A DNA stretch of 64,000 nucleotides from Candidatus Tiamatella incendiivivens (GTDB lineage Archaea > Thermoproteota > Thermoprotei_A > Sulfolobales > Acidilobaceae), in contig WALW01000010.1 in the NCBI GenBank assembly GCA_015522635.1, positions 14,640-78,639 of the forward strand, given 5' to 3'. The position numbers and the translations under genes are program-made. The notes under the pieces were generated by a model. The model ran no database searches. It was given only the letters and a program-made list of their open reading frames with translations, and was not told the DNA's origin. Shown piece by piece: positions 19,375 to 44,697 of the stretch (its first letter is position 1; every line of letters begins with the position of its first letter).

Positions 19375-22062
19375 TTACTCCCCCAATTTACGCCCTAGCA
19401 TAGACAACCATGCTATGAATGCTGTGAGCTGAATATCGTCATCTGATCCCTCGACTACCCTGAAATGAATCTCTCCCAGATAGTCAGCTATTAGTATCCT
19501 GTATTCCTCAGGTACCTGTATTTTATTTCCAAACAACTCCCGGTGAATTTGCTTCAAGACGTCAGTACCTGCCAACCCGTATTCTATCATAAGCTTCCTA
19601 AGCTTCGACCTGGCAAGGTCGAAGTCTCCCTTCAGAGCTGTTTGAACCATCTCTCTTATTTCAACAGGATGGGCAAGGCCAACTACTTTGTAAACCATTG
19701 AAACCGTTACCTTCCCAAGAGAAGCAGCTGCTTGAAGCACATTTATAGCCTTCCTCATGTCCCCCTCTGATATGTCGAATATACTTTCTAATGCATCTTC
19801 ATCATACTCTATACCCTCATTCTCCAATATATATGCAAGCCTGGAAACCACATCTTCCTTGCTAAGCGGTGTAAACCTGAACAACGCGCAGCGACTCTGA
19901 ATAGGGTCAATAATCCTGGAAGGATAGTTCGCTATGAGTATAAACCTAGTCGAAACCGTATAAAGCTCCATAAGCCTTCTCAGAGCCTGTTGTGCATCAC
20001 TAGTCATATTATCAGCTTCATCCAATAAAACTATCCTAAACGGTATCCCTGGCGGTGTCCTACTCCTCGCAAACTCCTTAACCTTGCTTCTAATAATATC
20101 AATTCCCCTCTCATCCGATGCATTCAACTCCAAGAAATAAGTCCTATAATCTTCCCCATATAGATCATGGGCAAGCGCATGTGCCGCTGTTGTATTATGC
20201 AATATTACTGGTCCATAACCTCCAATGAAATTCCCTAGCTCTGGCACAGTTAAATCATACACTACGGTTTCTTCTTCGACGGTTTTAATTGATTTAATAT
20301 CATCCCAGAATACATCGAGCTGTAAAATATTATTAGTATCATAGAGTGCTTCTGCTATTTCTTTGTACAGTATAAGAAGCCCATCGTAAACAACTTGTCT
20401 TAGTTGGTCTAATTTCCTAATCCTATCTGCTCTGATGTTATCTTTTAACATGGTTTTTACCGATGAACCAAACGGATAGAGCCGTCTCCCTACATACTCA
20501 TAGCTTAGATATTTTCGAATGGAGCCGTCTAAAACGGCCCTGTACTTATTCAACGAATTGACAGAGTCAAGATTATTGATCAGCTTAATTACTGTATTTA
20601 AACGCGGTATCCCTTGCTCATTCTTATACTCAAACACTCTGAATCTTCTTCCCATTGAAACTTTTAGTGTGTCGAGTTCTCCTATGATTTGATTCGTCAG
20701 GGGTTCAAGCGGATTTCTTAGTACCTCTAGCCTCTGCTCTATATCCATTAATAATCTTTGAAGATCTGGGATGATTTTTGCTGCTAAATTATTGAATGTT
20801 TCTACTCCAATTCTTTCTTCTTCTAGGAGCAGCCTCTTTTCTGCTTTTGTAAGATCCCTTGATAGATGCTTACTTAGTTTCGGTATAACTCTCCTCAAGC
20901 TATGTGGGATGTAAACAGTATCAACACCATCCATGGTTTCACGGTTTTTCAAGAGACTCATTATAACTGGCTTCTTCTTTGGATGTATAAGACCTATGTT
21001 GTTTATAAAAGTGTTTAACTGTTTTTCTCCAGGTACGATTATATTGTAATATACGTTATTTTCGGTTCTTTCTTCTTCAAGCCTTGCAATTACACCTAAT
21101 ATATTAAATGCATACAGCAGATCTAATGCCACAGCTTTACTCGAAGTGTTAATAATAACACCGGTTTTATCAATAGTTCCACCTGCATCCGTATAAGCAC
21201 GTAAAAATGCCGCAAGTGTTTTCTTTGATTTCCACACAAATGGAGGAATCCCGGCTCCCCCGGCTTTTCTTCCACGAACATCGCTCTTCCCCGTAATATC
21301 TTCCACAATATTTCTCTTATTCACCCTAATTCTAAGGGTTCTTCCTATCGGAAATTCCTCCCTCGCATCTGTTCCATAGATTAACTGGAACAATAATTTT
21401 ACTCTTGAGCGCAGGGTGTGGCCGCTATTATGGAAAGTAACATATGAGCTATTATCCATTGTATTTATATATACGTCACCGTTAGCCAATATGTAACCTG
21501 TTAATTCTGCTAAAAGTACTTCCTTTTCTTCTATGATGCTTTCACTTATATTGATAGTCCTAGGAACCGCTATCTTCATATCTTTATCGATCCCGGGAGG
21601 TAGCTTCCAATCTATCCTACCATACCTATTCATCACCAAGAGAGGGTGTCTCAGTGTAACTTCTATTTTTCTTCCACTTGAAAGCTCTATTTTCACTATA
21701 AAGTTTGTTTTTCCTCTATAGATATGAGATGTTTTAGCTGGAATTATCCTCCCATTCTTACTGAGAGAATAGATAGACACATTTGCCTCTTCAAAGACCT
21801 CTTCCCCCTTAACTTTCCTGGATTGTATTATTTCCTCAATTATTTCTCCTATCTTTCTCGGCCCATTATTTGTTAGTACTGGGGTATTATAGGTAACGCA
21901 TTTACCTGTACCAGGCGGGCCAGCGAATAAAAGGTGCGGCATGTTTTTTTCTCCTATAAATTTCTGCATTCTAATAACTATTTCCTTCTGGTTTATGATG
22001 TTTTTCAGCGTCTTGGGACGGTATTTTTCGACCCACAGTAACTCGTATATTTCACTGCTCAA
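19375..22062 (-). CDS. rfcS: Replication factor C small subunit, interrupted by an intein
   Basis: Extein LWVEKYRPKTLKNI...LLFAGPPGTGK | TTAAHALAHDLYG...VLLDEADNMT...SRCALFRF. The joined exteins total 326 aa. Confidence 0.92.
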   Translation of the reverse strand: MSSEIYELLWVEKYRPKTLKNIINQKEIVIRMQKFIGEKNMPHLLFAGPPGTGKCVTYNTPVLTNNGPRKIGEIIEEIIQSRKVKGEEVFEEANVSIYSLSKNGRIIPAKTSHIYRGKTNFIVKIELSSGRKIEVTLRHPLLVMNRYGRIDWKLPPGIDKDMKIAVPRTINISESIIEEKEVLLAELTGYILANGDVYINTMDNSSYVTFHNSGHTLRSRVKLLFQLIYGTDAREEFPIGRTLRIRVNKRNIVEDITGKSDVRGRKAGGAGIPPFVWKSKKTLAAFLRAYTDAGGTIDKTGVIINTSSKAVALDLLYAFNILGVIARLEEERTENNVYYNIIVPGEKQLNTFINNIGLIHPKKKPVIMSLLKNRETMDGVDTVYIPHSLRRVIPKLSKHLSRDLTKAEKRLLLEEERIGVETFNNLAAKIIPDLQRLLMDIEQRLEVLRNPLEPLTNQIIGELDTLKVSMGRRFRVFEYKNEQGIPRLNTVIKLINNLDSVNSLNKYRAVLDGSIRKYLSYEYVGRRLYPFGSSVKTMLKDNIRADRIRKLDQLRQVVYDGLLILYKEIAEALYDTNNILQLDVFWDDIKSIKTVEEETVVYDLTVPELGNFIGGYGPVILHNTTAAHALAHDLYGEDYRTYFLELNASDERGIDIIRSKVKEFARSRTPPGIPFRIVLLDEADNMTSDAQQALRRLMELYTVSTRFILIANYPSRIIDPIQSRCALFRFTPLSKEDVVSRLAYILENEGIEYDEDALESIFDISEGDMRKAINVLQAAASLGKVTVSMVYKVVGLAHPVEIREMVQTALKGDFDLARSKLRKLMIEYGLAGTDVLKQIHRELFGNKIQVPEEYRILIADYLGEIHFRVVEGSDDDIQLTAFIAWLSMLGRKLGE
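20194..21900 (-). mobile_element. Intein (569 aa) with LAGLIDADG homing-endonuclease domain in the rfcS P-loop
   Basis: Starts with Cys (codon 21898-21900) right after GPPGTGK and ends ..NFIGGYGPVILHN (Asn codon 20194-20196) before +1 Thr. Endonuclease blocks are LAELTGYILANGDVY and LAAFLRAYTDAGGTI. Confidence 0.9.
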
Positions 22063-31277: not shown

Positions 31278-32521
31278 AGGAGAAGGTAGACCTTGTCATA
31301 TATAACGTAGGGGAACTAGTAACATTCAATAATACCGTTCCTGGAGATGTATCTGAGGAGAATGCTGGGATACTAAGGGACGCGTCTATAGCGGTGAAAA
31401 ACGGGGTAATATGGGATGTGGGTGATACTGATGAGCTGCTTGGAAAATACGTGGGAGAACTAGTAGATGCTCAAGGCAACCTTGTTACTCCAGGGTTAAT
31501 AGATACACATACCCACATGGTTTTCGCTGGAAGCCGGGAGGACGAATTTGAGTATAAAATAATGGGTTTGAGCTATGAGGAAATCCTAGGAAAGGGAGGC
31601 GGTATTTATAGGACTGTTAACGCTACCCACCAAGCCACAGTAGACGAGCTTGTCTTGAGGGGGCTAGAGATTCTAGGTGAAATGATTCAGCATGGATCAA
31701 CAGTAGTTGAGATCAAGGGAGGATACGGTCTTGACTTGGATGGGGAAATTAAAATAATGGAAGCTGCTAATATAATTTCCACAAAAACTCCTGCGGGAAT
31801 AATTCCGACAATGCAAGCCCATGTAATTCCATGTGAATATAAGAATGACCGGAAAGCATACATAGATTACTATGTAAACAAAATGCTAGTAGAGGCGTCG
31901 GAAAGAAAACTGGCTGTGTACTCTGACGTCTTCTGCGACAAAGGAGCATTCACACCCAGTGAAACCAAGTATATACTAGAGGAGAGCCTCAAACTAGGAT
32001 TCAAACTAAGGATCCATGCAGACCAGCTCGCATATATAGGCTGTAGCAAGATAGCAGGGGATCTTCCCGTAGATGCCATGGATCACTTAGACTATATGCC
32101 ACCAGAGAATGCTAGGATATTAGCTCATAAGGGTGTTGCAGCCGGATTGACCCCTACGTCTGAACTAGCTATGTTCTCAACGGGGCATCCGCCGGTTGAG
32201 GAGTTAAGGAAATTGAAAGTCCCTATCGCGTTGGGAACGGATTATAACCCTAATAACATGACACCTAACATCCAACTGGTAATGGATTTAGCGACATACA
32301 AGTACAGATTAACTCCCTTAGAAGCCCTAGCCGGTGCTACGGTAAATGCTGCATACAGTCTGAGGATCCATGATTCCAGAGGCAGGATTAGGAAAGGATA
32401 TAGAGCAGATATCGTGATCTGGAGGATTCCAAGTCACAGGTGGATAGGGTATCTGTGGGGAGTGAATAAGGTTGAAAAAGTCTATGTATCTGGAAAAGAG
32501 GTATGGAGGAGGAATTATTGA
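31274..32521 (+). CDS. hutI: Imidazolonepropionase
   Basis: [49 protein letters not shown]. Confidence 0.85.
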
Positions 32522-34236
32522 CTTTTCTTCTTATCCATATATTCTATGTAAGGTAGCTTTACACCCTTCTCGCGGGCTATCCTTATAGACTTCTCGTAAC
32601 CCGCGTTTGCATGTCTCATTATACCGCTCCCAGGGTCAGTAGTGAATACTCTCCCGGCACGGATGTCCATTTCTTCACTTCCATCAAGCACAACGCTTAA
32701 TCCTGCGTGAATACTGTAACCTACGCCGACTCCGCCACCATGGTGTACTGCAACCCAGGTTGCTCCCGCTACAGCATTCAGCAGAGCATTGAGGAGAGGC
32801 CAATCCGCTATAGCATCACTACCATCCTTCATTCCCTCCGTCTCTCTATACGGGCTTGCGACACTACCACTATCCAAGTGGTCTCTACCTACCCATACCG
32901 GCCCTGAGAGCTCTCCACGTCTTACCATGTTATTAACTATTTTAGCCCACCTGCCCCTCTCACCATATCCAAGCCAGCATACTCGGGCGGGTAGTCCTTG
33001 GAATTTAACGTATTTACGGGCTTTCCCAATCCACCTAGTTAGCTCTTTATTATAGCTGAACTCGCTGAGTATCATGTCATCTATCTTGTATATATCATTG
33101 GGGTCTCCGACGAGGCTCGTCCACCTGAATGGGCCTCTTCCTTCCTCGAATAACGGTCTAATATATGCTACAACGAAGCCAGGGTACTCGAATGCATCCT
33201 TGAACCCTGCATCGTACGCTCTTTTCCTTATATTGTTCCCATACTCGAATGCAATACTTCCACGCCTCTTCATCTCAACAATCGCTTCCACTTGCTTCTC
33301 CATGCTCTCCATACTCATCTCAGTATACTTCTCCGGGTTCTCTTCCCTCAGCACTGCTGCTTCCCCAACAGTGAGGCCTTCCGGTACGTATGCGAGAGGA
33401 TCGTGTGCAGGGGTCTGGTCAGTAACTATATCTGGTATGATGGCATTCTTAACAAGCTGATAGTAAACTGTCGCAGCGTTCCCTAGCAAGCCTATGCTGA
33501 GAGGCTCCCTTTTCTCCTTCGCTTTAAACGCCATATCTAGTGCTTTGTCTAGGCTATCCGTCCAAGTATTAAGCTGGCTCAGCTTTAACCTTCTCTCAAT
33601 CATTCTTTTATCGACTTCGACATCAATCACGACACCACCATTCATAGTTACTGCTAACGGTTGAGCACCGCCCATTTCCCCTAATCCTGCTGTTAAAACT
33701 AACTTGCCTTCCAGGGTTCCATCATAATGGGACTTGGCTACTGTAGCGAACGTCTCGTATGTTCCTTGAAGTATTCCCTGCGTTCCTATATAGTTCCAGC
33801 TGCCAGCAGTCATTTGCCCATACATTATAAGGCCTTTTGCCTCCAACTCTCTGAAGTACTCCCAAGTAGCCCATTTAGGTACAAGGTTACTGTTAGCTAT
33901 GAGTACTCTTGGCGAATGCCTGTGCGTCCTGAATATTCCTGCTGCACGGCCGCTTTGGACGAGCAGAGTCTCATCATCTTCCAAGGATAGAAGGGCTTCA
34001 ACTATTGCCTCGAAATCACCCCAGCTTCTAACTGCCCTCCCAGTCCCACCGTATACTATAAGGTTCTTAGTGTCCTTAGCGACCATAGGGTCTAGTACAT
34101 TGAATAACATACGGAGAGCTCCTTCTATCTGCCAACTGGCAGTGTGGAGTTCAGGTCCAGTGATTATATTTACTGTCCTGGCTTCAGGGTCATAGAATCC
34201 TTGTGAGATGAGGTCTTCTAATGTTGAGTGTGGCAA
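32515..34236 (-). CDS. hutU: Urocanate hydratase
   Basis: 573 aa with [54 protein letters not shown] start. Confidence 0.9.
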
Positions 34237-34242
34237 GAATTA

Positions 34243-34266
34243 TCACCAATAATAGATTATCGGTGA
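34243..34266. promoter_or_regulatory. 11-2-11 near-perfect palindrome TCACCAATAAT-AG-ATTATCGGTGA just upstream of the hutU start
   Basis: Read directly: one mismatch between the arms. It lies 7-30 nt upstream of the hutU TTG, between an AAAATATAAT TATA-like element and the start codon. Confidence 0.35.
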
Positions 34267-34304
34267 CTTGGAGAATTATATTTTTGTGAAAGGTAGTTGG
34301 GGAA

Positions 34305-35240
34305 TTATTTCCGGTTTTCTTTAAGTGAGAGGCAGACTGTGTCACCGGCTAACTCGTCTAGTATATATAGCAGGTCTTCTGTTTTAGCTTTGAGGTCAGG
34401 GTATCTCTCTGCATTTTCAGCCATGAGGTTGTTTACCTTCCTCCTTATCCCTTGGTATAAATGTATTCTTTTAAGGCTCTCTGACAAGTAGCTTCCTACT
34501 GCTTCCCTGAACGCTATGATAGTTTTACTAATTATAGACCACGCCGTTTCGTCTCCCTGGTATCTAGCTGCTATCCAGGCTAGACCTGACATAATTCTCG
34601 GGAGAACGCCGAGTATTGATGAAGCGGAGTGCCTGGACATTCTGTCTCCCTCTCTTACAGATGTTTGCGAGCATGTTTTGTTTATTGATAATCTATAGAA
34701 GTTGTGGAGCCTGTCTAGGGTTCCGAGTGTTTCCTCTATTCTATTATTGTCTACTCTACCCGTTTCATACGAGTCTCTTATCGTCTCGACTAGGTTCTGG
34801 TATTCTACGAATATTCTCCTAAGATATTTCTGCGGATCTGTTCCATCGTCTCTGAATCCTATTACGACGGTATTATACTCTTCCCGCACGCCTGCTACAT
34901 AAGATAGTTTTTCAGCGATTCCAATTATATCCTCCGGCTTCTGATAGCTGGCGGCATACTCTATTCTTATAGAATTATACCCATTCAAATACGCGCACTT
35001 AATCATCCTTTCCAAACCAAGCTCTTTAACGTTCTTGGTATACTTTGTAGTTACCTGCTCCTTAATACAAGGCTTCCTACTGCTTCCAGGTAATATCTTC
35101 AAGTGGCCTCCTTCATCCACCATGTATATAGGATCCCCAGGCTTCAGATTGTTCTTCCTAGCCCAGTTTTTGGGAAGCGTAACGACCAAGCTACTGCTAC
35201 CCAGTCTCTGTATTTTCCTCGTTTCAACCACGAGTGTCAA
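34305..35240 (-). CDS. AbrB/SpoVT-domain + PhoU-like regulator
   Basis: The N-terminus RKIQRLGSSSLVVTLPKNWARKNNLKPGDPIYM looks like a SpoVT/AbrB swapped-hairpin, followed by ~250 aa of helical PhoU-like repeats. This architecture is common in archaea. Confidence 0.55.
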   Translation of the reverse strand: MTLVVETRKIQRLGSSSLVVTLPKNWARKNNLKPGDPIYMVDEGGHLKILPGSSRKPCIKEQVTTKYTKNVKELGLERMIKCAYLNGYNSIRIEYAASYQKPEDIIGIAEKLSYVAGVREEYNTVVIGFRDDGTDPQKYLRRIFVEYQNLVETIRDSYETGRVDNNRIEETLGTLDRLHNFYRLSINKTCSQTSVREGDRMSRHSASSILGVLPRIMSGLAWIAARYQGDETAWSIISKTIIAFREAVGSYLSESLKRIHLYQGIRRKVNNLMAENAERYPDLKAKTEDLLYILDELAGDTVCLSLKENRK

Positions 35241-35311
35241 GGCTTATTCCCAAGTTACCATTGTAGCTCTACAAATAAAAGTTTAACTCATGTTAAATAT
35301 CTAATAGAGAA

Positions 35312-36208
35312 CTAAAAACTCTCCCATCCACCCGAGCCTTCGAAACCAGATAATACAACACCTGGCTCTCCCTTCCCGGCAAGACCCACAACCCTACAAG
35401 CCCACATACCAGAAGCGAACCCGCTACAGTAACCGAGAAAATCATCTACACAATCATTAGAAACCAATAGAAACAAGTTGTAATCCTCCCCAACACTAAG
35501 CTTTCTCCAATCACCATCAGCAACAGACAAAGCTTCCTCGTCAAACCACAAATCGCTAACAACTAATCCAACCCCAGAACCCTCAGCTAGAAACCTCAGC
35601 GAATATAGGAAACCATCACTATTATCAATAACAGCCCTCACACACTTATGGGAAACTACGTAAGGAATCCAACTAGGAATAACTGGTCTCACACTCCACC
35701 CCATCACACTTGGAAAATCCTCAACGGACAAGCCTTCCTTATAGATATAATATGCAGCACTACCCAATCCAATAGAACCAAGCTGAATAACGGCGTCTCC
35801 AGGAGAACCTCCACTCCTATCTAAGAGCCTTCCAGCTAAACTTTTTCCTACAGCAAAAACATCTATCCAAGCATCACAACTGCACCTATTGGTATCCCCG
35901 CCAACAAGTTTACCTCCATAGAAACCAACTGCTTCCCTAATCCCACGAGTTAATTCCTCGGCATTCTCCCGTGATCCCACACCTATAGAGGCAAGATAGA
36001 AGACTGGAAGACCACCAGAGGAATATACATCCGATATAGCCGACGTAACAGCCTTCCACCCTAGATCCTCTAAGGACATCCAAGGATACAATGCTTCCTC
36101 AGCAGAGTAACCGTCGACTTTGAACATCCAGCCAGACTCGTAGTAGGCGTCTGCATCTGGAATACTCAACTCTCTTAACAACCTGTATATGAACTCATGC
36201 TCACTCAA
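35312..36208 (-). CDS. thiL: AIR-synthase-related protein, ThiL-like (thiamine-monophosphate kinase)
   Basis: DLGWKAVTSAISDVYSSGGLP and YGGKLVGGDTN match the PurM/ThiL fold signatures, and the 298-aa size fits. Confidence 0.55.
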   Translation of the reverse strand: MSEHEFIYRLLRELSIPDADAYYESGWMFKVDGYSAEEALYPWMSLEDLGWKAVTSAISDVYSSGGLPVFYLASIGVGSRENAEELTRGIREAVGFYGGKLVGGDTNRCSCDAWIDVFAVGKSLAGRLLDRSGGSPGDAVIQLGSIGLGSAAYYIYKEGLSVEDFPSVMGWSVRPVIPSWIPYVVSHKCVRAVIDNSDGFLYSLRFLAEGSGVGLVVSDLWFDEEALSVADGDWRKLSVGEDYNLFLLVSNDCVDDFLGYCSGFASGMWACRVVGLAGKGEPGVVLSGFEGSGGWESF

Positions 36209-36373
36209 TCTTTACCCCAGAGAAAATATCTGGCCGGCTGTAAACTATAAACACCTAACACATCCCGAGGAATCAGATTACTTATATACCCTTCGATCCA
36301 CGCGGAGGAAAGAGCCCAAAAGTACTCCATCCAAATAAGAATCGCGGACCTATATGGGTCCAGCATATAAGAT

Positions 36374-36964
36374 GTGAAACACATGAAGAACAAGAAAATG
36401 GGAGCAATCGTTCCATTGTTACTACTTGCAGTCTTGGCTGTAGGTATGTTCGGTGGAGCAATGGCTCTCTGGTGGGAAAGACTCAACGTCGATGTAACCG
36501 TTAACACAGGATCATTAGACGCTCAATTAAGCGTTGAAGGCTCTGGTGATAACGAAATAGCCTTAGCTCAAGCAGCAGGTGAAGATGACCCAACAGTCAA
36601 AAATGTATCATACATAACTTGTACACTGGCTGAAGATGGTAATAGCATAGACATTGTAGTAGAAAACGCTTACCCTAGTATAACATACTACTGTGACATA
36701 AACCTAGAGAATACTGGTACAATACCCTTCAAGGTATACGGAACACCTACGATTGAAGGCAACATAACTAGTGTCTTAGCAAATGATAGTGGATTAGTGA
36801 ATGGTACGATCTATGATGGATTACAGATGCACCCTGGTGACATAGTATACGACACAATAGTTATACACTTAACAAACGATGCTCTAGAGAACTCAGTCTA
36901 CACTGGACATATGAACATAACCGTCGAACAGTGGAACGAATACCCTGCAACACCCCCTAGCTAA
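36374..36964 (+). CDS. Secreted TasA/camelysin-like protein with SipW-cognate-type signal peptide (paralogue 1)
   Basis: The N-terminus has a basic n-region, h-region LLLLAVLAVGMFGG, then AMALWWERLNVDVTVNTGSLD. Internal INLENTGTIPFK, C-terminal NITVEQWNEY, and 5 N-x-S/T sequons. The start could instead be ATG 36383 or 36398. Confidence 0.7.
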   Translation: MKHMKNKKMGAIVPLLLLAVLAVGMFGGAMALWWERLNVDVTVNTGSLDAQLSVEGSGDNEIALAQAAGEDDPTVKNVSYITCTLAEDGNSIDIVVENAYPSITYYCDINLENTGTIPFKVYGTPTIEGNITSVLANDSGLVNGTIYDGLQMHPGDIVYDTIVIHLTNDALENSVYTGHMNITVEQWNEYPATPPS

Positions 36965-37037: not shown

Positions 37038-37772
37038 GTGAAAAATGAAATGAATAAAAATGAGAGAAAAGCCGCTCTACCACTAGGCTTACCGCTACTA
37101 CTAGCGCTTATACTAGCATCGATCGGCGGAGCATCAGCATTATGGTATAAAACCATGACGACAGATGTAACCGTTCATACAGGCGAGCTCGACTGGGAAT
37201 TCAGGAACAATACAGTATTCGACTCAGATCCTTGTGCGGATCCACTAGGAAATAATATGACCTGGCCTGACTCTAACGCGTTTCCTCCAAACTATAATGT
37301 AGTTATAGCTCCGGAGGGTAAGGATGTTGGATGTACAGGAATCCACTTAGCAGACATGGATGGCGACGGCGACTATGATACATTGAATGTGACACTAAAT
37401 AATGTGTACCCTTACTATGCAACTGAAGTAGACTTTAGAGTATGGAATATAGGGACTATACCGCTGAAAATATGGAGAATACAAGTCATACTAGACAACG
37501 GTACGATATACGAGTTCACTGAAGAGAACCCTAACCAGGTAGAAAATGAAGGACTATACTTAGATCTAAACAATGATACAAAACCTGACGTGCTCTTCCT
37601 ATGGGGAGACAATTTCGGGAACCAGCTTGAAACTGGGCAAAATGCAGATATCAGTCTACACATAGTAGTACTACAAACGGCCCCTCAGGGTGCAACACTG
37701 CACTTCATGATAGGATTAGACGCGGTTCAATGGAACGAATATAATGAAGTAGTCCCTCAATCGGGAACATAA
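37038..37772 (+). CDS. Secreted TasA/camelysin-like protein with SipW-cognate-type signal peptide (paralogue 2)
   Basis: LLLALILASIGGASALWYKTMTTDVTVHTGELD, FRVWNIGTIPLK, LDAVQWNEY. These are the same three motifs as in 36374..36964, with a larger insert. Confidence 0.7.
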   Translation: MKNEMNKNERKAALPLGLPLLLALILASIGGASALWYKTMTTDVTVHTGELDWEFRNNTVFDSDPCADPLGNNMTWPDSNAFPPNYNVVIAPEGKDVGCTGIHLADMDGDGDYDTLNVTLNNVYPYYATEVDFRVWNIGTIPLKIWRIQVILDNGTIYEFTEENPNQVENEGLYLDLNNDTKPDVLFLWGDNFGNQLETGQNADISLHIVVLQTAPQGATLHFMIGLDAVQWNEYNEVVPQSGT

Positions 37773-37789: not shown

Positions 37790-38398
37790 ATGAACCCTTT
37801 TTTAAAATCAATACCGGTTTATTCGCTTAAACTAGGCTTTCTTTTTGTTATTGTTATTCTAACATTAACTGTTATACCGGGAGCTTCAAGTCTTTGGTAT
37901 GAGAAGTTACACACTAACATAACAGTGAAAACAGGGGATTGGAGTCATCCAAGATCGAAGGGATATTGGTGCCATGCACTATCCTCGAGCCTCTGCGGAT
38001 GCCACGGTAATCATGGCAATAATAATGCATTTCCAACGTATTCGCAGCTTACAAATTATTTACGGGATATAGGAAATAGATCCAATGTATTTACATTCAA
38101 TGGAACTGACTTTGAGAACGTAAAAACTGCTATTCATATACTTCAGTGCTGTAATACAGGATGTAATGCCTGGAACCATAATTCAATGGAGAATAAGTTG
38201 AAAGCACAGCTTCTAGCAGTTTGGCTGAACGTAGTATCGGGCTATGGTGATGGCTACAAGCTAGATCTAGGCAACACTACAGTGCTGACTGGAGAAGAGA
38301 TAATAAATATGTCAGAGACCGCTCTTCTGAATAATAATACACCGAGTTATGAGTCATTGAAGAACATCTGTGAGGAATACAATACTAGGTGGGAATAA
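37790..38398 (+). CDS. Cys/His-rich secreted protein with the same signal-peptide type
   Basis: VIVILTLTVIPGASSLWYEKLHTNITVKTGDWS, then WCHALSSSLCGCHGNHGNNN and QCCNTGCNAWNH. It lacks the N-x-G-T and QWNEY motifs. Confidence 0.55.
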   Translation: MNPFLKSIPVYSLKLGFLFVIVILTLTVIPGASSLWYEKLHTNITVKTGDWSHPRSKGYWCHALSSSLCGCHGNHGNNNAFPTYSQLTNYLRDIGNRSNVFTFNGTDFENVKTAIHILQCCNTGCNAWNHNSMENKLKAQLLAVWLNVVSGYGDGYKLDLGNTTVLTGEEIINMSETALLNNNTPSYESLKNICEEYNTRWE

Positions 38399-39567
38399 CA
38401 TTGAGGAAACCCTTAGCCTTCAATTCCACTCCTTTCAATATTTTTCAGAATTCCAAGTTTAATTATAGTTCATCACTCCTTATACTGGGAGTACTATTCT
38501 ATCCCCTGCAAGCTTTCATAATCCCGCAATCCCTACCCATATGGCTAATTCAACCCGTGAATGCGTTGGTATGGTTCACGCTAGGGATCCTATCTATATT
38601 ATACCTTAGACAGTTGAAAATAACGTATACCACTTCATATACAATCATATCACTGATTAGTGGAGTAGTATACATGCTAATCTATTTCACCCTGGGATCT
38701 TTTATGGGAAGCATAGGCAGAAACCCTCTCGCACTAACACCCGTATCAATAGCTATTAACACAGTTTGGGCTATAAGCATAGGATTTGGAGCTGAGTCGT
38801 TTAGAGCAGTCCTTTTAGCATTAACTAAGAGGAAGTCACTCATGATAGGACTAACGTCTCTAATGTTCACTGCAGTAATGATACCATTAATGTCCATCCC
38901 CGAAAACATGATGACGGAAAATGCGGTGAAAATGGTTGGAGGAAAATTCCCAATATTTGCCATATTCTTGATAGCAGGGATCTTCAATTACATGGGAGGA
39001 CTCAATTCGGGTCTCGGATTTCTAACAGCCGCAATGCTAGGTAAAACCCTAATACCTGTGTTGCCTAATTTGAACTGGATAGAAGCTTCATTTACAGCTA
39101 TAATAGCTGTAATTACAGTCTACATAGTTGCCTCGAGGAGCTTTCCTTCAGTGGCAAGTGATATGGAGCGCTCCGATTACGGTAAGCTGATTCTAGGGCT
39201 TGTTTTCGTCGGCCTGATATGGCTTAGTAATGGTTTACTTGGATATCAAGTCGTTGTAGTAACGAGCGGTAGCATGAGGCCTGGGATCGATGTAGGTGAC
39301 CTAGCGATAGTTAAGCTATCTCAAAGCGACTATTCTGCTGGAGATGTTATCCTCTTTAGAATGAATAATGGATATGTGTTACATAGAATACATGATGTAA
39401 GTAAGGTAGATGGAGCAACGTATATTCATACAATAGGAGATGCTAACGGAGAAGTTGATCCGTGGGAAGTGAGTTCGAACCAAGTTGTTGGCAATATGAT
39501 TTTCAAGGTACCAAAGCTTGGCTGGCTAACTATATGGTTTAAGAATTTAGCTTCGAGGTTTGCCTAA
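38389..39567 (+). CDS. Polytopic membrane domain (~8 TM) fused to a Sec11/SipW-type signal peptidase I domain
   Basis: The C-terminal ~125 aa read VVTSGSMRPGIDVGDLAIV (Ser box), GYVLHRIH (His box), GDANGEVDPW. The N-terminal ~260 aa are hydrophobic, with no recognisable catalytic motif and no His at all. It overlaps the upstream gene by 10 nt. Confidence 0.75.
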   Translation: MGITLRKPLAFNSTPFNIFQNSKFNYSSSLLILGVLFYPLQAFIIPQSLPIWLIQPVNALVWFTLGILSILYLRQLKITYTTSYTIISLISGVVYMLIYFTLGSFMGSIGRNPLALTPVSIAINTVWAISIGFGAESFRAVLLALTKRKSLMIGLTSLMFTAVMIPLMSIPENMMTENAVKMVGGKFPIFAIFLIAGIFNYMGGLNSGLGFLTAAMLGKTLIPVLPNLNWIEASFTAIIAVITVYIVASRSFPSVASDMERSDYGKLILGLVFVGLIWLSNGLLGYQVVVVTSGSMRPGIDVGDLAIVKLSQSDYSAGDVILFRMNNGYVLHRIHDVSKVDGATYIHTIGDANGEVDPWEVSSNQVVGNMIFKVPKLGWLTIWFKNLASRFA

Positions 39568-39648
39568 CACGTAATAATAATGCTATAAATATATTTATAA
39601 TGGTTAAATGATAAGTTTTATTAACCATATATTCGGAGGAGCGCATAA

Positions 39649-41034
39649 TTGAATAAATATATTCGAAATTCGATTCTAGGCATTGTCCTAGTAATTACAA
39701 TCACCTCGTTACTCATGATATCTCAAGGTACAAATGCACAACAAGAAGCACAAACAGTAAGAGTAGACGTAGGAACATATCCAATAGATCTACCTGTAAT
39801 TGTTGATGGGGTAATATACACTCCCAGTAAGACAGGTAGACCAGTCTTCTACTGGGACATAGGTAGCGTACACACAATTAGAATAGTGGAACCTGTGTAC
39901 TACGCTGCACCTGGTGCCCGTGTAGTATTTAAAGGATGGAACACCGGTGACACAGGAAAACAACTAACGATAAACGTAACTAGAACAATCTCAATCATAG
40001 GCTTATACCAGCGCCAATACTTCATCGAGGTAACCTCAACATACGGCAACCCTACAGGCTCAGGGTGGTATTCTGAGGGAGCAAGAGTCAATATGAGTGT
40101 GGAAAAGATATTTCCACTAGATCTAGGAGTCAGAGCTGTATTCAAACAATGGACAGGTGGAATAACACCTGAAAATCCTACCAACTTTGTATATGCATTC
40201 GCACCAACTACTATTAAAGCACAATGGACCATAGAATACTATGTAAACCTAACCTCCAACGTGAATGCTAGTCTATCTGGTTCAGGATGGTATGAGAAAG
40301 GGAAGGTTATCAGAATAAATGCTCAAGACAAAGTTAACAAGGACGATAATACGCAATACAGATTTTCTGACTGGAAAGTAGTTAAGGGGAACATAGTTCT
40401 CGATTCGCCTAATAAAAGACAGCAGCTCATATCAGTAAACGAGCCTGTAATGCTGGAAGCCGAATATGACACATACTATTTAGTTAAAGTGCTTTCACCG
40501 TATGGAGCACCACAGCCCCCCGAATACTATAAGAAAGGATCACAAATTCTAATCAACCTAGAGTCTCCAGCTGAGATCAATTCTGGTGTAAGGAAGATCT
40601 TCGTGAAATGGAATACTGGAAGTAAAGCATTACCGTTGAAGATAACTGTAGATAAACCGTTGACATTGGCAGCTATATGGAAGACACAGTACAAGCTAGT
40701 TATTGATTCTAAAGTACCAGCTGTATCAGGTGATGGATGGTATGATGAGAACAGTAAGGCCAAGATCACAGCATACGAGAGTGCCCCATCGAAATTCGGT
40801 TCTAAATACTTGTTCAAGGGGTGGCAGGGAGATTATAAGAGCCTATCAACAACAGGAACTGTTCTAATGGATTCACCCAAGCATATTGTAGCAGTTTGGG
40901 AGAAAAGCTATGCAGGAACCTATGTAAGTATAATAATAGCGGTAGCAGTGATACTGGGATTCTACTATGGATACAAGAGATTTCTATTGCCACGGATTAC
41001 TAAGCATAACGAGGAAATTGAGCCGGTAGAATAG
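39649..41034 (+). CDS. Surface protein: signal peptide, five tandem ~75-90-aa repeats (divergent InlB B-repeat-like), C-terminal TM anchor
   Basis: Repeat landmarks are Y-x-[VL]-x-V...GSGWY-x-x-G...F-K-x-W-x-G: YGNPTGSGWYSEGARV/FKQWTGG, SGSGWYEKGKVI/FSDWKVV, PEYYKKGSQI/FVKWNTG, SGDGWYDENSKA/FKGWQGD. The anchor is YVSIIIAVAVILGFYYGYKRF. Confidence 0.7.
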   Translation: MNKYIRNSILGIVLVITITSLLMISQGTNAQQEAQTVRVDVGTYPIDLPVIVDGVIYTPSKTGRPVFYWDIGSVHTIRIVEPVYYAAPGARVVFKGWNTGDTGKQLTINVTRTISIIGLYQRQYFIEVTSTYGNPTGSGWYSEGARVNMSVEKIFPLDLGVRAVFKQWTGGITPENPTNFVYAFAPTTIKAQWTIEYYVNLTSNVNASLSGSGWYEKGKVIRINAQDKVNKDDNTQYRFSDWKVVKGNIVLDSPNKRQQLISVNEPVMLEAEYDTYYLVKVLSPYGAPQPPEYYKKGSQILINLESPAEINSGVRKIFVKWNTGSKALPLKITVDKPLTLAAIWKTQYKLVIDSKVPAVSGDGWYDENSKAKITAYESAPSKFGSKYLFKGWQGDYKSLSTTGTVLMDSPKHIVAVWEKSYAGTYVSIIIAVAVILGFYYGYKRFLLPRITKHNEEIEPVE

Positions 41035-41038
41035 TGAA

Positions 41039-41395
41039 TCATGTACTCATATCTCCTAGCATCCTTGAACCAATTGTGTATCCTTTTTCTGTGAGCCTAT
41101 AAAGCTTTAGATTGTTTCTAACATAAGCTACTTCTATGAAGCCAGCTGCAACCAATCCTTCAAGGTATTTGATAACATTTTTATGATTCATGTTCACATT
41201 TCTAGCTATCCTTCTCACTGTAAATAAATCAGTTTTTCTATGGTTGTTCATGAATTCTATTATTCTAAGGTAAGGGGTACCCTTGAATAACTCTATTACT
41301 GCAAGTAAGCATGATAATACATGCGTCTCCTTACGGCGCGCGTTTTCAGGAGCCGCTGTCTCATTACATGTAACGTTTAAGTCTATAGTGTTCAA
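41039..41395 (-). CDS. Winged-helix transcriptional regulator (ArsR/MarR-like)
   Basis: 118 aa. RIIEFMNNHRKTDLFTVRRIARNVNMNHKNVIKYLEGLVAAGFIEV followed by a wing YRLTEKG. Convergent with the pilus-like locus. Confidence 0.5.
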   Translation of the reverse strand: MNTIDLNVTCNETAAPENARRKETHVLSCLLAVIELFKGTPYLRIIEFMNNHRKTDLFTVRRIARNVNMNHKNVIKYLEGLVAAGFIEVAYVRNNLKLYRLTEKGYTIGSRMLGDMST

Positions 41396-41824
41396 AATTA
41401 TTACCCCTATGATCGTATATACACGCTAGGACTAAATAAATCATATATAAAATATGTTAATATACATAAACAACTTATATATTGTTAATATATAAAAATT
41501 ATTCATCTATTGAGAACTTGGGAGAAAAGTTTAAAACGAACAGTCAATTAAAAGAATTCTATCAATGCTAGCACAATCATTCCTTCATCCAAACTTGTAC
41601 TCTCAAGATCTTGCTTAAGAAAAATTACAAGAATATTGGGAATACGAACTAAATACATTGTATTACTAATCATATCGCTCATCTATTGAAAACACAGACA
41701 TACATCAATAAACTAGAGGGGGATGACAGAGTCACAAGTTAACAACAGTATTACATTAACTAATATCTTACAGGTAGGTTAAAGAAAGAATACAATAATG
41801 GAGACTGAAATATATAGAAACGAA

Positions 41825-43027
41825 CTAGGATGATTTTACTTCAGGCTTCAATATAATGTAGAGATAATAGATTGCTGATCCAATAAGGAAGGTCATAAAC
41901 CCTGTCGTTAACATCATCACTCCCCGCAGTGTTGCCAGTTGGTTAACGTTTTCTAGAGATAACACTTGAGCTAATACAGGAACCAAGTTCTTAGGAACTA
42001 TCGCTAAGACCCTGGGATCCGTTAGATCCGCAATGAAATATGGGTATTGGCTAAATGCATTTAGATACTCGCCTATTAAAACAGTAAACAGTGCAATCCC
42101 TCCGCCAAATAACATCCACTTACTGATTCCAGCATCCAATGATCCTTTTCTAATAGCGTTATATGCTCCGATGATGATCACGAACTGAATTGCTACAAGG
42201 ATCACCTTGAATATAAATAGCCAGCTCATGTCATAGTGTACTATTCCATCTCCTACCTTCCATCCTAGATTAGCGAAAATGTTGTTAAACTTGTATGCAA
42301 CATTTTGAAGTGAAAACGCGTACCATAGCCCTAGGAACGCCATTATTATTAGGCCAAGTAATACATATGGTACTGTTTTCTTAACGAATAATAGAGAAAC
42401 TCTCTTCATTTCTTCATCGCTTGATTTTACGTATCTATAAGCATATGCTGATGCCAACGCAAATGTCCCAGCAGTAAGAGCTCCTATAATACTCTTCAGA
42501 TATAATGGTGGTAACGTGGGATTAGCGAGAGCCTTCATTAAATCGAGCCTAGGTACACCGTCTTCGAAGTATAATCCTTGTGGAGTGTTAAGGAAGGCGA
42601 AAACAGCTCTAAAACCGAGAGGTATCAGTAAAAACGTCAATGCCATAAAGAACCCTATACTCAAATGAGTACTAGGAGCCCACCTATCCCAGCCATAGTA
42701 GAATGCTGCTATAGTGAAGAAATTGAGAACTATAGACAATATTGCTATGGCAAATGGTGACATTGCTATATTACCGGCCAGTCCTATGAAACCAGGATAA
42801 AAACTCAGTAGGAACACGGTGAAAGCAGTAGCAAATACTCCGGCTAGAGCATAAGTTGCCGCAAGCATCCTAGTTAATTCTCTTGCAACACGCTCTAACC
42901 CCTTATCATCCTCCTTAAGCGACCTCCACCTAAGATACGGTGCAAGTATTCCAAGTGTTATGCCCATGTTGACAAGGACGATGTGGAACCCGAAGACAAA
43001 GGCCAGCCAGAATACAGACTCCATCAC
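41825..43027 (-). CDS. Cytochrome bd-family oxidase second subunit, CydA-like paralogue (CydA')
   Basis: 400 aa. FHIVLVNMGITLG and YYGWDRW mirror the HWAILQYVLGLP and YYGWNRF blocks of the upstream subunit. No GR-x-PW C-terminal motif. 4-nt overlap with cydA. Confidence 0.65.
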   Translation of the reverse strand: MMESVFWLAFVFGFHIVLVNMGITLGILAPYLRWRSLKEDDKGLERVARELTRMLAATYALAGVFATAFTVFLLSFYPGFIGLAGNIAMSPFAIAILSIVLNFFTIAAFYYGWDRWAPSTHLSIGFFMALTFLLIPLGFRAVFAFLNTPQGLYFEDGVPRLDLMKALANPTLPPLYLKSIIGALTAGTFALASAYAYRYVKSSDEEMKRVSLLFVKKTVPYVLLGLIIMAFLGLWYAFSLQNVAYKFNNIFANLGWKVGDGIVHYDMSWLFIFKVILVAIQFVIIIGAYNAIRKGSLDAGISKWMLFGGGIALFTVLIGEYLNAFSQYPYFIADLTDPRVLAIVPKNLVPVLAQVLSLENVNQLATLRGVMMLTTGFMTFLIGSAIYYLYIILKPEVKSS

Positions 43028-44697
43028 TTGGCCAGCACCTCCTTACTACTAGGTACCCACAGTATTCTCCACACTGCATATACTAGTATTGTTAACATTG
43101 CAACGAAGTAAAGCGCTACTAACACCACCTCCCATACGGGGGCAGGGTTAAATGTATGGGCTACATCAGGTGTCATAATACCATATATAGTCCATGGTTT
43201 TCTACCGATCTCTCTGACTGCCCAACCAAGATATGATACTAGTTGGACTACAATTATACCTACTAGTCCAAGCTTATATAACCACCTAGATGTCCTTGTC
43301 TCTTTATTTCTCCACGCATAATAAGCTATTCCGAGTCCATAGAATCCTAATAGTATTGCTAGAAATATCTTAGTATAATAGAGGTAGTGAACTAGTATAG
43401 GCGGTTTGCATGTATGGATTGCTGGATTCGTGGCTGCCTTGAATTGGCAATAATTGGGATCAATAGTATCATAGTTTGGCATGTGAGCATTCGTAGAACC
43501 GTAAGCTAGGAACTCCATGAACTTGTCCAGATGGAATGTACGGGTTATACTAAAGTGCTGAGTTGTCACTCCTTCTATAGCAGAGAGTTTCTCTGGATTG
43601 TAGTGTGCAATAACTGACCCCATTTCGTGGCCGAATACGAAGCCTTGGAGTGCTATGGCTATTACAGCAAAATATGCTGAATACTTCAGAAACTTCTTAG
43701 CATATTTCTTGTATTCCCCGTTTTCTATTTTGCCTGTAAGCCTGAACGCGTAGACTCCCATAACAGTGAAGCTAGACGTGGTTAACGCAGCTCCTATAGC
43801 ATGCATAATGCTTGCTGCATACACTGGGGACTCGAACGTGACCTTATAGACTCCTTCACGGTCAATCGTGTTGGTGAGTATCTTATCTACTATTACCTTT
43901 ACAGGAGTATTTAGCAAATTATTCAATTGATCCTGACTCATATGAGATACTGTTGTCTTGTTTACAACTATCATTAGGATACTATCCTTGACTCTCACAC
44001 CATGCCAGGATTCCCACGCCAGTCTTTGAACTATTCTTACAGGCATTTGAACCACGATGCTGTCCTGCGTTGCTCCAGAAACGGTCATGCCTAATTTCAT
44101 TAGTGTCGTTATATTCAATAATGGTACCATGTCGTCGGGGACGTAGAGGTCTAGCTTCGGGTATCCCTGTGAATATAACCATTGACCGGTAGCCGGGTCA
44201 TATGCTGGGTGTATACCAGTTGGAGCCACCATATACGCATTAACACTCACTATCTGCGTCCCAGAGAACCATGCACCGCTGAATGCTAAGAGAGCTACTA
44301 TAACTAGTGCCCATGGTTTAAACCTATTCCACCCGTAGTAGAGCATGTAAACGAATATTACTTCCATCATGAAGGCGAAGATTTCAACATATAAAGGGAA
44401 GTAGATATATCTTCCAGCAGCCTCTGTTAGGTTGGGCCATAATAGTAGTAACCCGAACTCTGCCCCTGTACCTGTAGCTGCTCCAACTGCAAATACTAGT
44501 ATGAATCCTTTCGTTAGTGTTAGCGCTATCTTCTTCCATGTTTCATCTTTCTTTATCGCGTATATTACTAGTGATATGAATGCCATGAACGGTAGTCCGA
44601 GGACGTACTGGAGAATTGCCCAGTGGACTTCAATCCCTATCATTGATAAGACTCTATCGGAAGCTGCAGGATAGCTTAGCCATTGGCCTATAACCAC
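43024..44697 (-). CDS. cydA: Cytochrome bd-type quinol oxidase subunit I
   Basis: 557 aa with His in TM1 (VHWAIL), GAEFG, EVIFVYMLYYGWNRF, SIMHAIGAAL, GHEMG, REIGRKPWTIYG. Recognised by comparison with E. coli CydA as remembered. Confidence 0.8.
   Translation of the reverse strand: MVIGQWLSYPAASDRVLSMIGIEVHWAILQYVLGLPFMAFISLVIYAIKKDETWKKIALTLTKGFILVFAVGAATGTGAEFGLLLLWPNLTEAAGRYIYFPLYVEIFAFMMEVIFVYMLYYGWNRFKPWALVIVALLAFSGAWFSGTQIVSVNAYMVAPTGIHPAYDPATGQWLYSQGYPKLDLYVPDDMVPLLNITTLMKLGMTVSGATQDSIVVQMPVRIVQRLAWESWHGVRVKDSILMIVVNKTTVSHMSQDQLNNLLNTPVKVIVDKILTNTIDREGVYKVTFESPVYAASIMHAIGAALTTSSFTVMGVYAFRLTGKIENGEYKKYAKKFLKYSAYFAVIAIALQGFVFGHEMGSVIAHYNPEKLSAIEGVTTQHFSITRTFHLDKFMEFLAYGSTNAHMPNYDTIDPNYCQFKAATNPAIHTCKPPILVHYLYYTKIFLAILLGFYGLGIAYYAWRNKETRTSRWLYKLGLVGIIVVQLVSYLGWAVREIGRKPWTIYGIMTPDVAHTFNPAPVWEVVLVALYFVAMLTILVYAVWRILWVPSSKEVLAK

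Follow-up and report, generated by a model that had tools for sequence, protein, structure and literature searches.

A signal peptidase I joined to a polytopic membrane domain of predicted CPBP-like fold in an AbpX-type fibre cassette of Candidatus Tiamatella incendiivivens

The stretch of DNA analysed here, a 64-kb window of contig WALW01000010.1 from Candidatus Tiamatella incendiivivens, harbors a six-gene cassette composed of three small secreted proteins (ORF1 to ORF3), a signal peptidase I (SPase) fused to a membrane domain, an InlB-B-repeat-like protein of ~460 amino acids (aa), and a convergent winged-helix (wHTH) gene (Table 1). The subject of this report is the fusion gene, an open reading frame (ORF) of 392 aa with a GTG start at 38389..39567 on the + strand. 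An earlier note, made from the sequence alone, had described this ORF together with its motifs, all of which are present as described: SGSMRPG at residues 293-299, VLHRIH at 330-335, GDANGEVD at 350-357, and AESFRAV at 135-141.

Table 1. Features of the fibre cassette in the 64-kb window (TM, transmembrane; AF2, AlphaFold2)
Feature	Position	Strand	Remarks
ORF1, AbpX-like (TasA-superfamily) major fibre subunit precursor	36374..36964	+	Predicted leader end ...GGAMA; predicted mature N-terminus LWWERLNVDVTVNTGSLD, the donor strand
ORF2, AbpX-like minor subunit precursor	37038..37772	+	Predicted leader ...GGASA, then LWYKTMTTDVTVHTGELD
ORF3, candidate tip/initiator with TapA-like role	37790..38398	+	...PGASS, then LWYEKLHTNITVKTG; Cys/His-rich non-jelly-roll domain
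Fusion N-terminal domain, residues 1-262	38389..39174	+	Alternative start TTG 38401; 8-TM CPBP/Rce1-like fold, no His/Cys; AF2 and Foldseek
TM3-TM4 extracellular loop, residues 107-117, GSIGRNPLALT	38707..38739	+	Family consensus GFGRSPY
E136-S-F-R139 in TM4	38794..38805	+	Putative remnant of CPBP motif 1 (EExxxR)
TM7-TM8 extracellular loop, residues 222-229, PVLPNLNW	39052..39075	+	Family consensus SPILPNLxW
Signal peptidase I module, residues 263-392, including stop codon	39175..39567	+	TIGR02228; Foldseek to SEC11
Ser box (S295)	39265-39285	+	Within signal peptidase module
His box (H332)	39376-39393	+	Within signal peptidase module
GDANGEVD	39436-39459	+	Within signal peptidase module
Downstream 461-aa protein, candidate membrane anchor/accessory factor	39649..41034	+	N-terminal signal/anchor, C-terminal TM helix; Pfam Flg_new_2, E = 1.3e-7
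Convergent winged-helix regulator, 118 aa	41039..41395	-	Pfam HTH_45, E = 4.4e-7

In the database version of the fusion protein (P0001), translation starts at TTG 38401 and yields 388 aa. This codon stands 2 nucleotides (nt) past the stop codon of ORF3 (TAA, 38396-38398), and a Shine-Dalgarno-like GGTGG is located at 38388-38392, 9 nt on its 5' side. The position of GGTGG favors TTG 38401 as the putative start of the fusion gene. If the GTG at 38389 is used instead, the gene overlaps ORF3 by 10 nt, as the earlier note had stated. The overlap is uncertain because it depends on that start codon, and it disappears with the start at TTG 38401.

The C-terminal part of the protein is an archaeal, Sec11/SipW-type signal peptidase I with predicted catalytic Ser, His, and Asp boxes intact, as judged from profile matches and a structural model. 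Residues 272-381 match TIGR02228 (archaeal signal peptidase I) with 69.1 bits against a cutoff of 51.85, and the same residues match Pfam Peptidase_S24 with 24.4 bits against a cutoff of 23.3. S295 in SGSM, H332 in LHR, and D351 and D357 in GDANxxxD are invariant among eight homologues, and the general-base box carries His, where bacterial enzymes have Lys. In the AF2 model, the module is composed of a TM anchor helix (263-280), a catalytic beta domain (286-374), and a short C-terminal amphipathic helix. A Foldseek search of the PDB with this domain retrieved human SEC11C/A (7p2q/7p2p, chains 7p2q_A/7p2p_A) at E = 1e-4 and TMt 0.64. The TIGR02228 score and the SEC11 fold match bear out the Sec11/SipW-type core proposed in the earlier note; it takes up about the last 130 residues. 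The SipW model NF046067 is also matched, at E = 5e-16 with 58.8 bits, which does not reach its equivalog cutoff of 190 bits. Therefore, the fusion peptidase is regarded as SipW-like in its predicted role, but not as a SipW orthologue. The distribution of charges, following the positive-inside rule, agrees with an N-terminus inside and a peptidase outside.

The preceding ~262 residues (hereafter the N-domain) are hydrophobic and devoid of Cys as well as His; the first His of the fusion protein is H332, so that none is found in residues 1-331. Both hydropathy and the AF2 model give eight TM helices, in agreement with the His-free polytopic domain proposed from the sequence. The domain belongs to no catalogued family: searched alone, it gave no match in Pfam with E values of up to 10, and none in NCBIfam. 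Neither the N-domain alone nor its profile matched any PDB sequence, and 30 diverse members of the N-domain family failed to match PF02517 at E values up to 10. An archaeosortase/exosortase-like identity was considered and dropped because the domain has neither Cys nor His.

The AF2 model of the fusion protein was built on a 150-sequence alignment and reached pLDDT 90.7 and pTM 0.84, whereas an earlier 8-sequence model reached only pLDDT 56. Foldseek against the PDB separates the model by domain, with the TM part and the peptidase part matching different structures. The TM part matches 6u0o_A (263 columns, TMt 0.58, E = 4e-3), a chain of the SagB-SpdC complex that we take, by its fold and length, as the 8-TM SpdC(1-256). 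It also matches the CAAX protease MmRce1 (4cad; 251 columns, TMt 0.55, E = 1e-2). The Foldseek probability is 1.0 for both SpdC and Rce1 and ~0.1 for other polytopic proteins. A fold search of BFVD returned mostly SPase and LexA folds and nothing informative on the TM domain.

E136 and R139 are invariant in the 30 diverse N-domains and conserved in at least 90% of the 150 sequences, and the pair is situated in TM4, the site of CPBP motif 1. The earlier note had remarked that AESFRAV faintly recalls the CPBP motif EExxxR. With SpdC and Rce1 as the sole TM-structure matches and E136/R139 invariant, this likeness holds at the level of the fold. Two extracellular loops, residues 107-117 and 222-229, are the best-conserved segments of the N-domain. 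The complete set of positions conserved in at least 90% of the 150 sequences is G103, G110, P113, N124, E136, R139, P188, G204, P223, L225, and P226. P223 and P226 are, like E136 and R139, invariant in the 30-sequence alignment, and P223 is invariant across the 150 sequences as well. Each loop contains a short strand in the AF2 model (108-111 and 224-227, respectively), and both are located on the same membrane face as the peptidase, according to the model and the predicted topology.

CPBP motif 2 (FxxxH) and motif 3 (HxxxN/D) are absent, and no conserved His is found in the family alignments of either 150 or 30 sequences. As modelled, the N-domain therefore has a CPBP-like fold but is not a CPBP protease, since both catalytic His motifs are missing; for the same reason it is probably non-proteolytic. 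A control alignment of genuine PF02517 proteins, picked by a motif scan of viral contigs and all matching PF02517, was compared with the N-domain by hhalign. The comparison yields a single, statistically weak alignment, in which E136/R139 fall on EELxFRG of motif 1 and which is also in register with the Phe of motif 2.

The fused architecture is conserved. Eight homologue clusters of 374-395 aa with 38-100% identity, all from Desulfurococcales metagenome-assembled genomes, have one continuous ORF with the same architecture. An exhaustive search with a profile of the N-domain alone, in which clusters are 50% identity representatives, produced 365 clusters at E <= 1e-3 and 78 at E <= 1e-10, and the matches are mostly 350-450 aa long. 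All three SPase motifs are present in 108 of the best 150 matches. The named members belong to Desulfurococcales, Ca. Tiamatella, and Hadesarchaea, and further members are bacterial by gene context, including human-gut metagenome contigs. A scan of a genome collection with the full-length alignment, keyed on the SPase motif, returned mostly unrelated actinobacterial SPases.

Family members of unusual size carry added domains, namely DUF5305, LysM, CBM96, Big_1, dockerin, or a PAS-GAF-histidine kinase-receiver module, and their TM domain is covered by no Pfam family. The long members, some of which bear such extra domains, include P0022/P0201 from Hadesarchaea (617-632 aa), P0095 (955 aa), and P0055 (751 aa). 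A few members (e.g. P0028, P0042, P0095, and P0144) have no SPase motifs recognisable by regular expression. In view of these members and of the extra domains, the CPBP-like module may also pair with partners other than SPase, as far as can be judged from the sequences.

A natural split version is found in two bacterial contigs (L060:4001-5212 and L061:1197-2408), where an N-domain ORF of 263 aa is followed by an SPase ORF that has a TM anchor of its own. An in-frame TAA stands exactly in the cytoplasmic linker with an ATG seven codons on, i.e. the interruption is not a frameshift, and the arrangement is identical in the ENA and JGI assemblies, which come from different pipelines. The pair lies in DNA of 58% GC, where three AbpX-like genes and a response regulator of the OmpR type precede it. 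It could be a true two-gene arrangement or a recent nonsense mutation. The split implies that both modules can exist as separate adjacent partners.

The three genes upstream of the fusion gene have a common signature, consisting of a hydrophobic leader, a small-x-small site, and L-W-(W/Y)-(E/K)-x-(L/M)-x-(V/T)-(D/N)-(V/I)-x-V-x-(T/S)-G. The predicted mature proteins start with L-W-W-E in ORF1 (cut after AMA), L-W-Y-K in ORF2, and L-W-Y-E in ORF3. The features by which AbpX proteins are recognised, an aromatic residue in the second mature position and an acidic one in the fourth, are found here, with Lys at position 4 in ORF2. ORF1 aligns with the AbpX of Pyrodictium abyssi (PDB 9sj2) from mature residue 2 onwards (phmmer, E = 5.9e-5); the listed GTG is probably not its true start, which would be an ATG a few codons further downstream. 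The match of ORF2 to the same structure is weaker (E = 0.0023) and spans the donor strand and the core NxYP...GTIP strand.

ORF3 has no match among PDB sequences. It seems to possess a donor strand but no evident domain that would accept one, which is what a fibre initiator, cap, or tip would be expected to show. We consider it a candidate for such a protein because AbpX loci have been described with predicted tip proteins (bioRxiv 10.64898/2026.01.04.697558). The Cys/His-rich, apparently non-jelly-roll part of ORF3 includes WCHALSSSLCGCHGNHGNN and QCCNTGCNAWNH, at which metal or disulfide chemistry is possible.

Orthologues of ORF1 and ORF2 occupy the same position in two other loci (L001 and L003), where the N-terminal motif of ORF3 is kept and the leader and donor-strand signature of all three proteins is retained. 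The cassette recurs in other loci with differing outer flanks, and wherever a locus extends far enough, AbpX/TasA-like genes accompany the fusion gene. The linkage to TasA-like genes proposed in the earlier note is thereby supported, and the alternative that the note had named as refuting it, an ordinary housekeeping peptidase lacking this linkage, is not borne out.

The association extends to bacteria. One bacterial homologue (L008) is located downstream of four small proteins whose leader, 'GYAAFAQQ', is TasA-like; the L008 neighbor protein had no match among PDB sequences, and its likeness to TasA consists of the N-terminal motif alone. The bacterial homologue at L060 follows three small proteins with an AbpX-like leader (YA followed by SWTKxLxINGTVxTGxL). 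DUF5305 often follows the bacterial homologues.

Downstream of the fusion gene, the 461-aa protein has orthologues that come after the SPase in three other loci (L003, L004, and L005). It has no relatives among PDB sequences. In the archaeal cassettes it stands where the bacterial homologues have DUF5305, and it is a candidate for the cell-surface anchor of the fibre. The possibility that it is itself a divergent DUF5305 was rejected, with no DUF5305 match in Pfam and an hhalign probability of 0.2%. Between the terminal TM segments, it contains four to five GSGWY-type beta modules resembling InlB B-repeats. The small wHTH gene is found in the same place in L003, L004, and L005.

These features place the locus among known systems. 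A preprint of January 2026 reported that AbpX-linked SPases of archaea and bacteria have ten TM helices, that AbpX loci encode minor subunits, tip proteins, a transcription factor, and, in most cases, a DUF5305 gene regarded as accessory to the SPase, and that the AbpX-locus SPase is treated as dedicated by its authors (bioRxiv 10.64898/2026.01.04.697558). Since ten-TM SPases were already reported there, the architecture is known; both it and the locus type are on record, and the fusion gene joins that kind. This reduces the novelty that the earlier note had supposed for the fusion. CAAX, CPBP, and Rce1 are not mentioned in that preprint, and the TM domain is not identified in it. Our literature search found no paper linking CPBP-like domains with SipW-type peptidases. 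What appears to be new, at the level of prediction, is the fold assignment, the parallel with SpbR-SpsB and SpdC-SagB, and the size of the N-domain family.

The closest counterpart is the AbpX-locus SPase of P. abyssi (WP_338249487.1), which is likewise of the TIGR02228 type, lies beside AbpX-like fibre genes, and has many TM helices in place of the usual one or two. An SPase I adjoins abpX according to the cannulae and AbpX preprints, and a polytopic SPase I is indeed adjacent here. The 2022 ABP paper, on the other hand, found no dedicated peptidase at the Pyrobaculum AbpA loci. Unlike most AbpX loci, the present one has no DUF5305 and instead encodes the InlB-B-repeat-like two-TM protein downstream. 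The cassette also resembles the tapA-sipW-tasA operon of Bacillus subtilis, in which SipW is a Ser-His, Sec11/archaeal-type SPase I that is dedicated to the TasA-family fibre and the accessory protein encoded with it; SipW substrates have an aromatic residue at P2'. SipW itself is small and lacks a 260-aa, 8-TM domain. In the eukaryotic signal peptidase complex (SEC11 with SPCS1-3; 7p2p/7p2q), a Sec11-type enzyme is likewise placed among extra TM helices, and its catalytic domain is the best structural match to the one described here. However, the extra helices of that complex are separate, unrelated subunits, whereas a single fused CPBP-like domain is found here.

The parallels for the N-domain come from Staphylococcus aureus. 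SpbR, which is CAAX-like but degenerate, binds the SPase I SpsB at its TM helix and extracellular domain, and inhibits SpsB cleavage in vivo and in vitro (PMC12260438). CAAX proteases require the His residues of motifs 2 and 3 (FxxxH and HxxxN/D), and SpdC, SpbR, and LnsB are degenerate and non-catalytic (PMC12260438). SpdC uses TM3 and the extracellular TM3-TM4 loop to hold the glucosaminidase SagB, and it determines how long the product is (10.1101/2020.05.21.109470). As in SpbR-SpsB, a CAAX-like polytopic module is coupled to SPase I in our case, covalently in the window and as adjacent genes in L060. SpbR differs from the fusion in that it is a separate protein and an inhibitor, its partner is a Ser-Lys SPase, and it has no link to fibre subunits; no sequence similarity between SpbR and the N-domain was detectable. 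With SpdC, the N-domain shares degenerate catalytic motifs, and the TM3-TM4 loop, the SagB contact of SpdC, is strongly conserved here. It departs from the SpdC/Rce1 family in lacking a PF02517 match and His motifs, and in its ExxR spacing. Like the non-catalytic CAAX-like scaffolds SpdC, SpbR, and LnsB, the N-domain has degenerate motifs and is paired with a single-pass extracytoplasmic enzyme, in most members by fusion.

We estimate a probability of about 0.6 that the fusion protein is a dedicated AbpX-type leader peptidase with a built-in, degenerate CAAX-fold, non-proteolytic membrane platform. The three upstream precursors would be exported, presumably by Sec, and cut after the small-x-small site, right before the L-W-(W/Y) with which the donor strand begins. 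Cleavage would take place at the outer membrane face and be carried out by the C-terminal Sec11/SipW-type Ser-His peptidase, held by its own TM anchor; from gene order and leader sequences, ORF1-3 are most likely the substrates. The N-domain, having lost the catalytic His residues, probably cuts nothing. It could serve as a membrane platform that packs against the TM anchor of the peptidase, and its two conserved extracellular loops may position or gate the catalytic domain and the substrates. By analogy with SpdC-SagB and SpbR-SpsB, we infer that the N-domain scaffolds or regulates the peptidase, and the same holds for the membrane platform suggested in the earlier note.

More tentatively, and with somewhat less than even confidence, we propose that the N-domain family is a large, unnamed set of degenerate CAAX-protease-fold modules in Thermoproteota, Hadesarchaea, and bacteria, almost always fused to SPase. 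SpbR-SpsB would then be no staphylococcal oddity but one example of an ancient partnership of CAAX-like scaffolds with signal peptidases that spans both domains of life. The fused form would be specialised for TasA/AbpX donor-strand fibres, possibly holding the leader and the donor strand until strand exchange.

Several observations weigh against a dedicated peptidase with a non-proteolytic, CPBP-like platform. CPBP homology is not established at the sequence level, given the lack of PF02517 matches described above and the weak statistics of the hhalign alignment, with P values of 0.017-0.043 versus 0.15-0.23 in one-sided reversed controls. Considering these statistics together with the fold match, we call the domain CPBP-like in fold only, i.e. 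probably a very divergent, degenerate relative, as distinct from a demonstrated family member. The Glu-Arg spacing is ExxR in the N-domain and EExxxR in CPBP. The invariance of E136/R139 could reflect retained chemistry and not structure alone. SpbR inhibits its peptidase, so that the sign of regulation by the N-domain is not predictable from it. Finally, the 64-kb window contains no further SPase I gene, and a word-indexed search with the C-domain, in which only 17 candidates were scored, retrieved no stand-alone SPase from assembly GCA_027076125.1.

The behavior of SpbR raises the alternative that the N-domain is mainly a built-in inhibitor or gate, restricting cleavage to a certain time or substrate without recruiting substrates. 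SpbR is, after all, the only characterised CAAX-like partner of SPase I, and it is inhibitory in both settings mentioned above. A permanently fused inhibitor is, however, hard to square with strict co-inheritance with the substrates, and the fusion protein has no regulatory input domain, although sensor domains do occur in a few family members. We therefore regard this explanation as unlikely.

It is also quite unlikely that the N-domain is an active variant of a CPBP-type intramembrane protease, in which case, for instance, the S26 domain would cut the leader and the N-domain would clear the cleaved signal peptide or perform a second processing step on the fibre subunits. The motif-1-like E136/R139 pair and N124 are conserved to the extent given above, and the fold match includes Rce1, which is an intramembrane protease of the glutamate-dependent kind. 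Against this stand the absence of FxxxH and HxxxN/D, of any His in the domain, and of any conserved His in the family, as well as the non-catalytic nature of the degenerate CPBP-like proteins SpdC, SpbR, and LnsB (PMC12260438; 10.1101/2020.05.21.109470).

A further possibility, which we judge improbable, is that the enzyme is the general housekeeping signal peptidase I of the lineage, its TM domain serving general secretion. The failure to find a second SPase I in the window or a stand-alone one from GCA_027076125.1 would agree with this. Many archaea have one Sec11-type enzyme, which also counts in its favor. However, the position after three AbpX-like genes is kept in loci with differing flanks, and the fused type occurs in bacteria beside proteins with TasA/AbpX leaders. 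The bacterial housekeeping signal peptidase is normally of the LepB type. The view of the preprint authors that the AbpX-locus SPase is dedicated also speaks against a housekeeping role.

Although one related bacterial locus has both modules as separate ORFs, an artefact in which two genes were joined by a frameshift near 39150, as the earlier note had allowed for, is ruled out for practical purposes by the continuous ORF in the window, in the eight homologues of 38-100% identity, and in most of the best 150 matches, and the split case is due to an in-frame TAA.

Outside the cassette, three upstream neighbors are located at 32515-36208 on the - strand, and all three also flank the cassette in L001. 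They encode a urocanase of 573 aa, a protein of 311 aa whose N-terminal domain is of the MazE/AbrB type, and a ThiL-like, AIR-synthase-related protein. A 100-aa ORF at 36205-36507 (-) runs antisense to the beginning of ORF1 and to the divergent intergenic region; its sequence is hydrophobic with low complexity, and it is probably no gene. On the other side, two polytopic ORFs of 557 and 400 aa at 41825-44697 (-), overlapping by 4 nt, resemble cytochrome bd oxidase subunits I/II, and the orthologue of that neighbor in L005 bears Pfam Cyt_bd_oxida_I. These bd-oxidase-like genes suggest an oxygen-respiring or oxygen-detoxifying Desulfurococcales lineage. The G+C content is 0.37-0.39 over 38001-42000, which covers the SPase gene, the downstream gene, and the regulator, compared with ~0.43-0.46 in most of the window; a second dip, to 0.38, occurs at 20001-22000. 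The dip may reflect either the composition of membrane and secreted proteins or a foreign origin.

In many biofilms of bacteria and archaea, TasA/AbpX-type fibres form the main protein scaffold. The fusion enzyme is a candidate for fibre-subunit-specific leader cleavage, the subunits carrying an aromatic residue at P2'. The N-domain merits a family model of its own, as none exists in Pfam or NCBIfam. The fusion can be read as a 'Rosetta stone' that ties a CAAX-protease-like membrane module to SPase I in one polypeptide in two domains of life, and it lends support to a view now emerging, in which single-pass enzymes of the envelope generally have degenerate CAAX-like proteins as their scaffolds or regulators.

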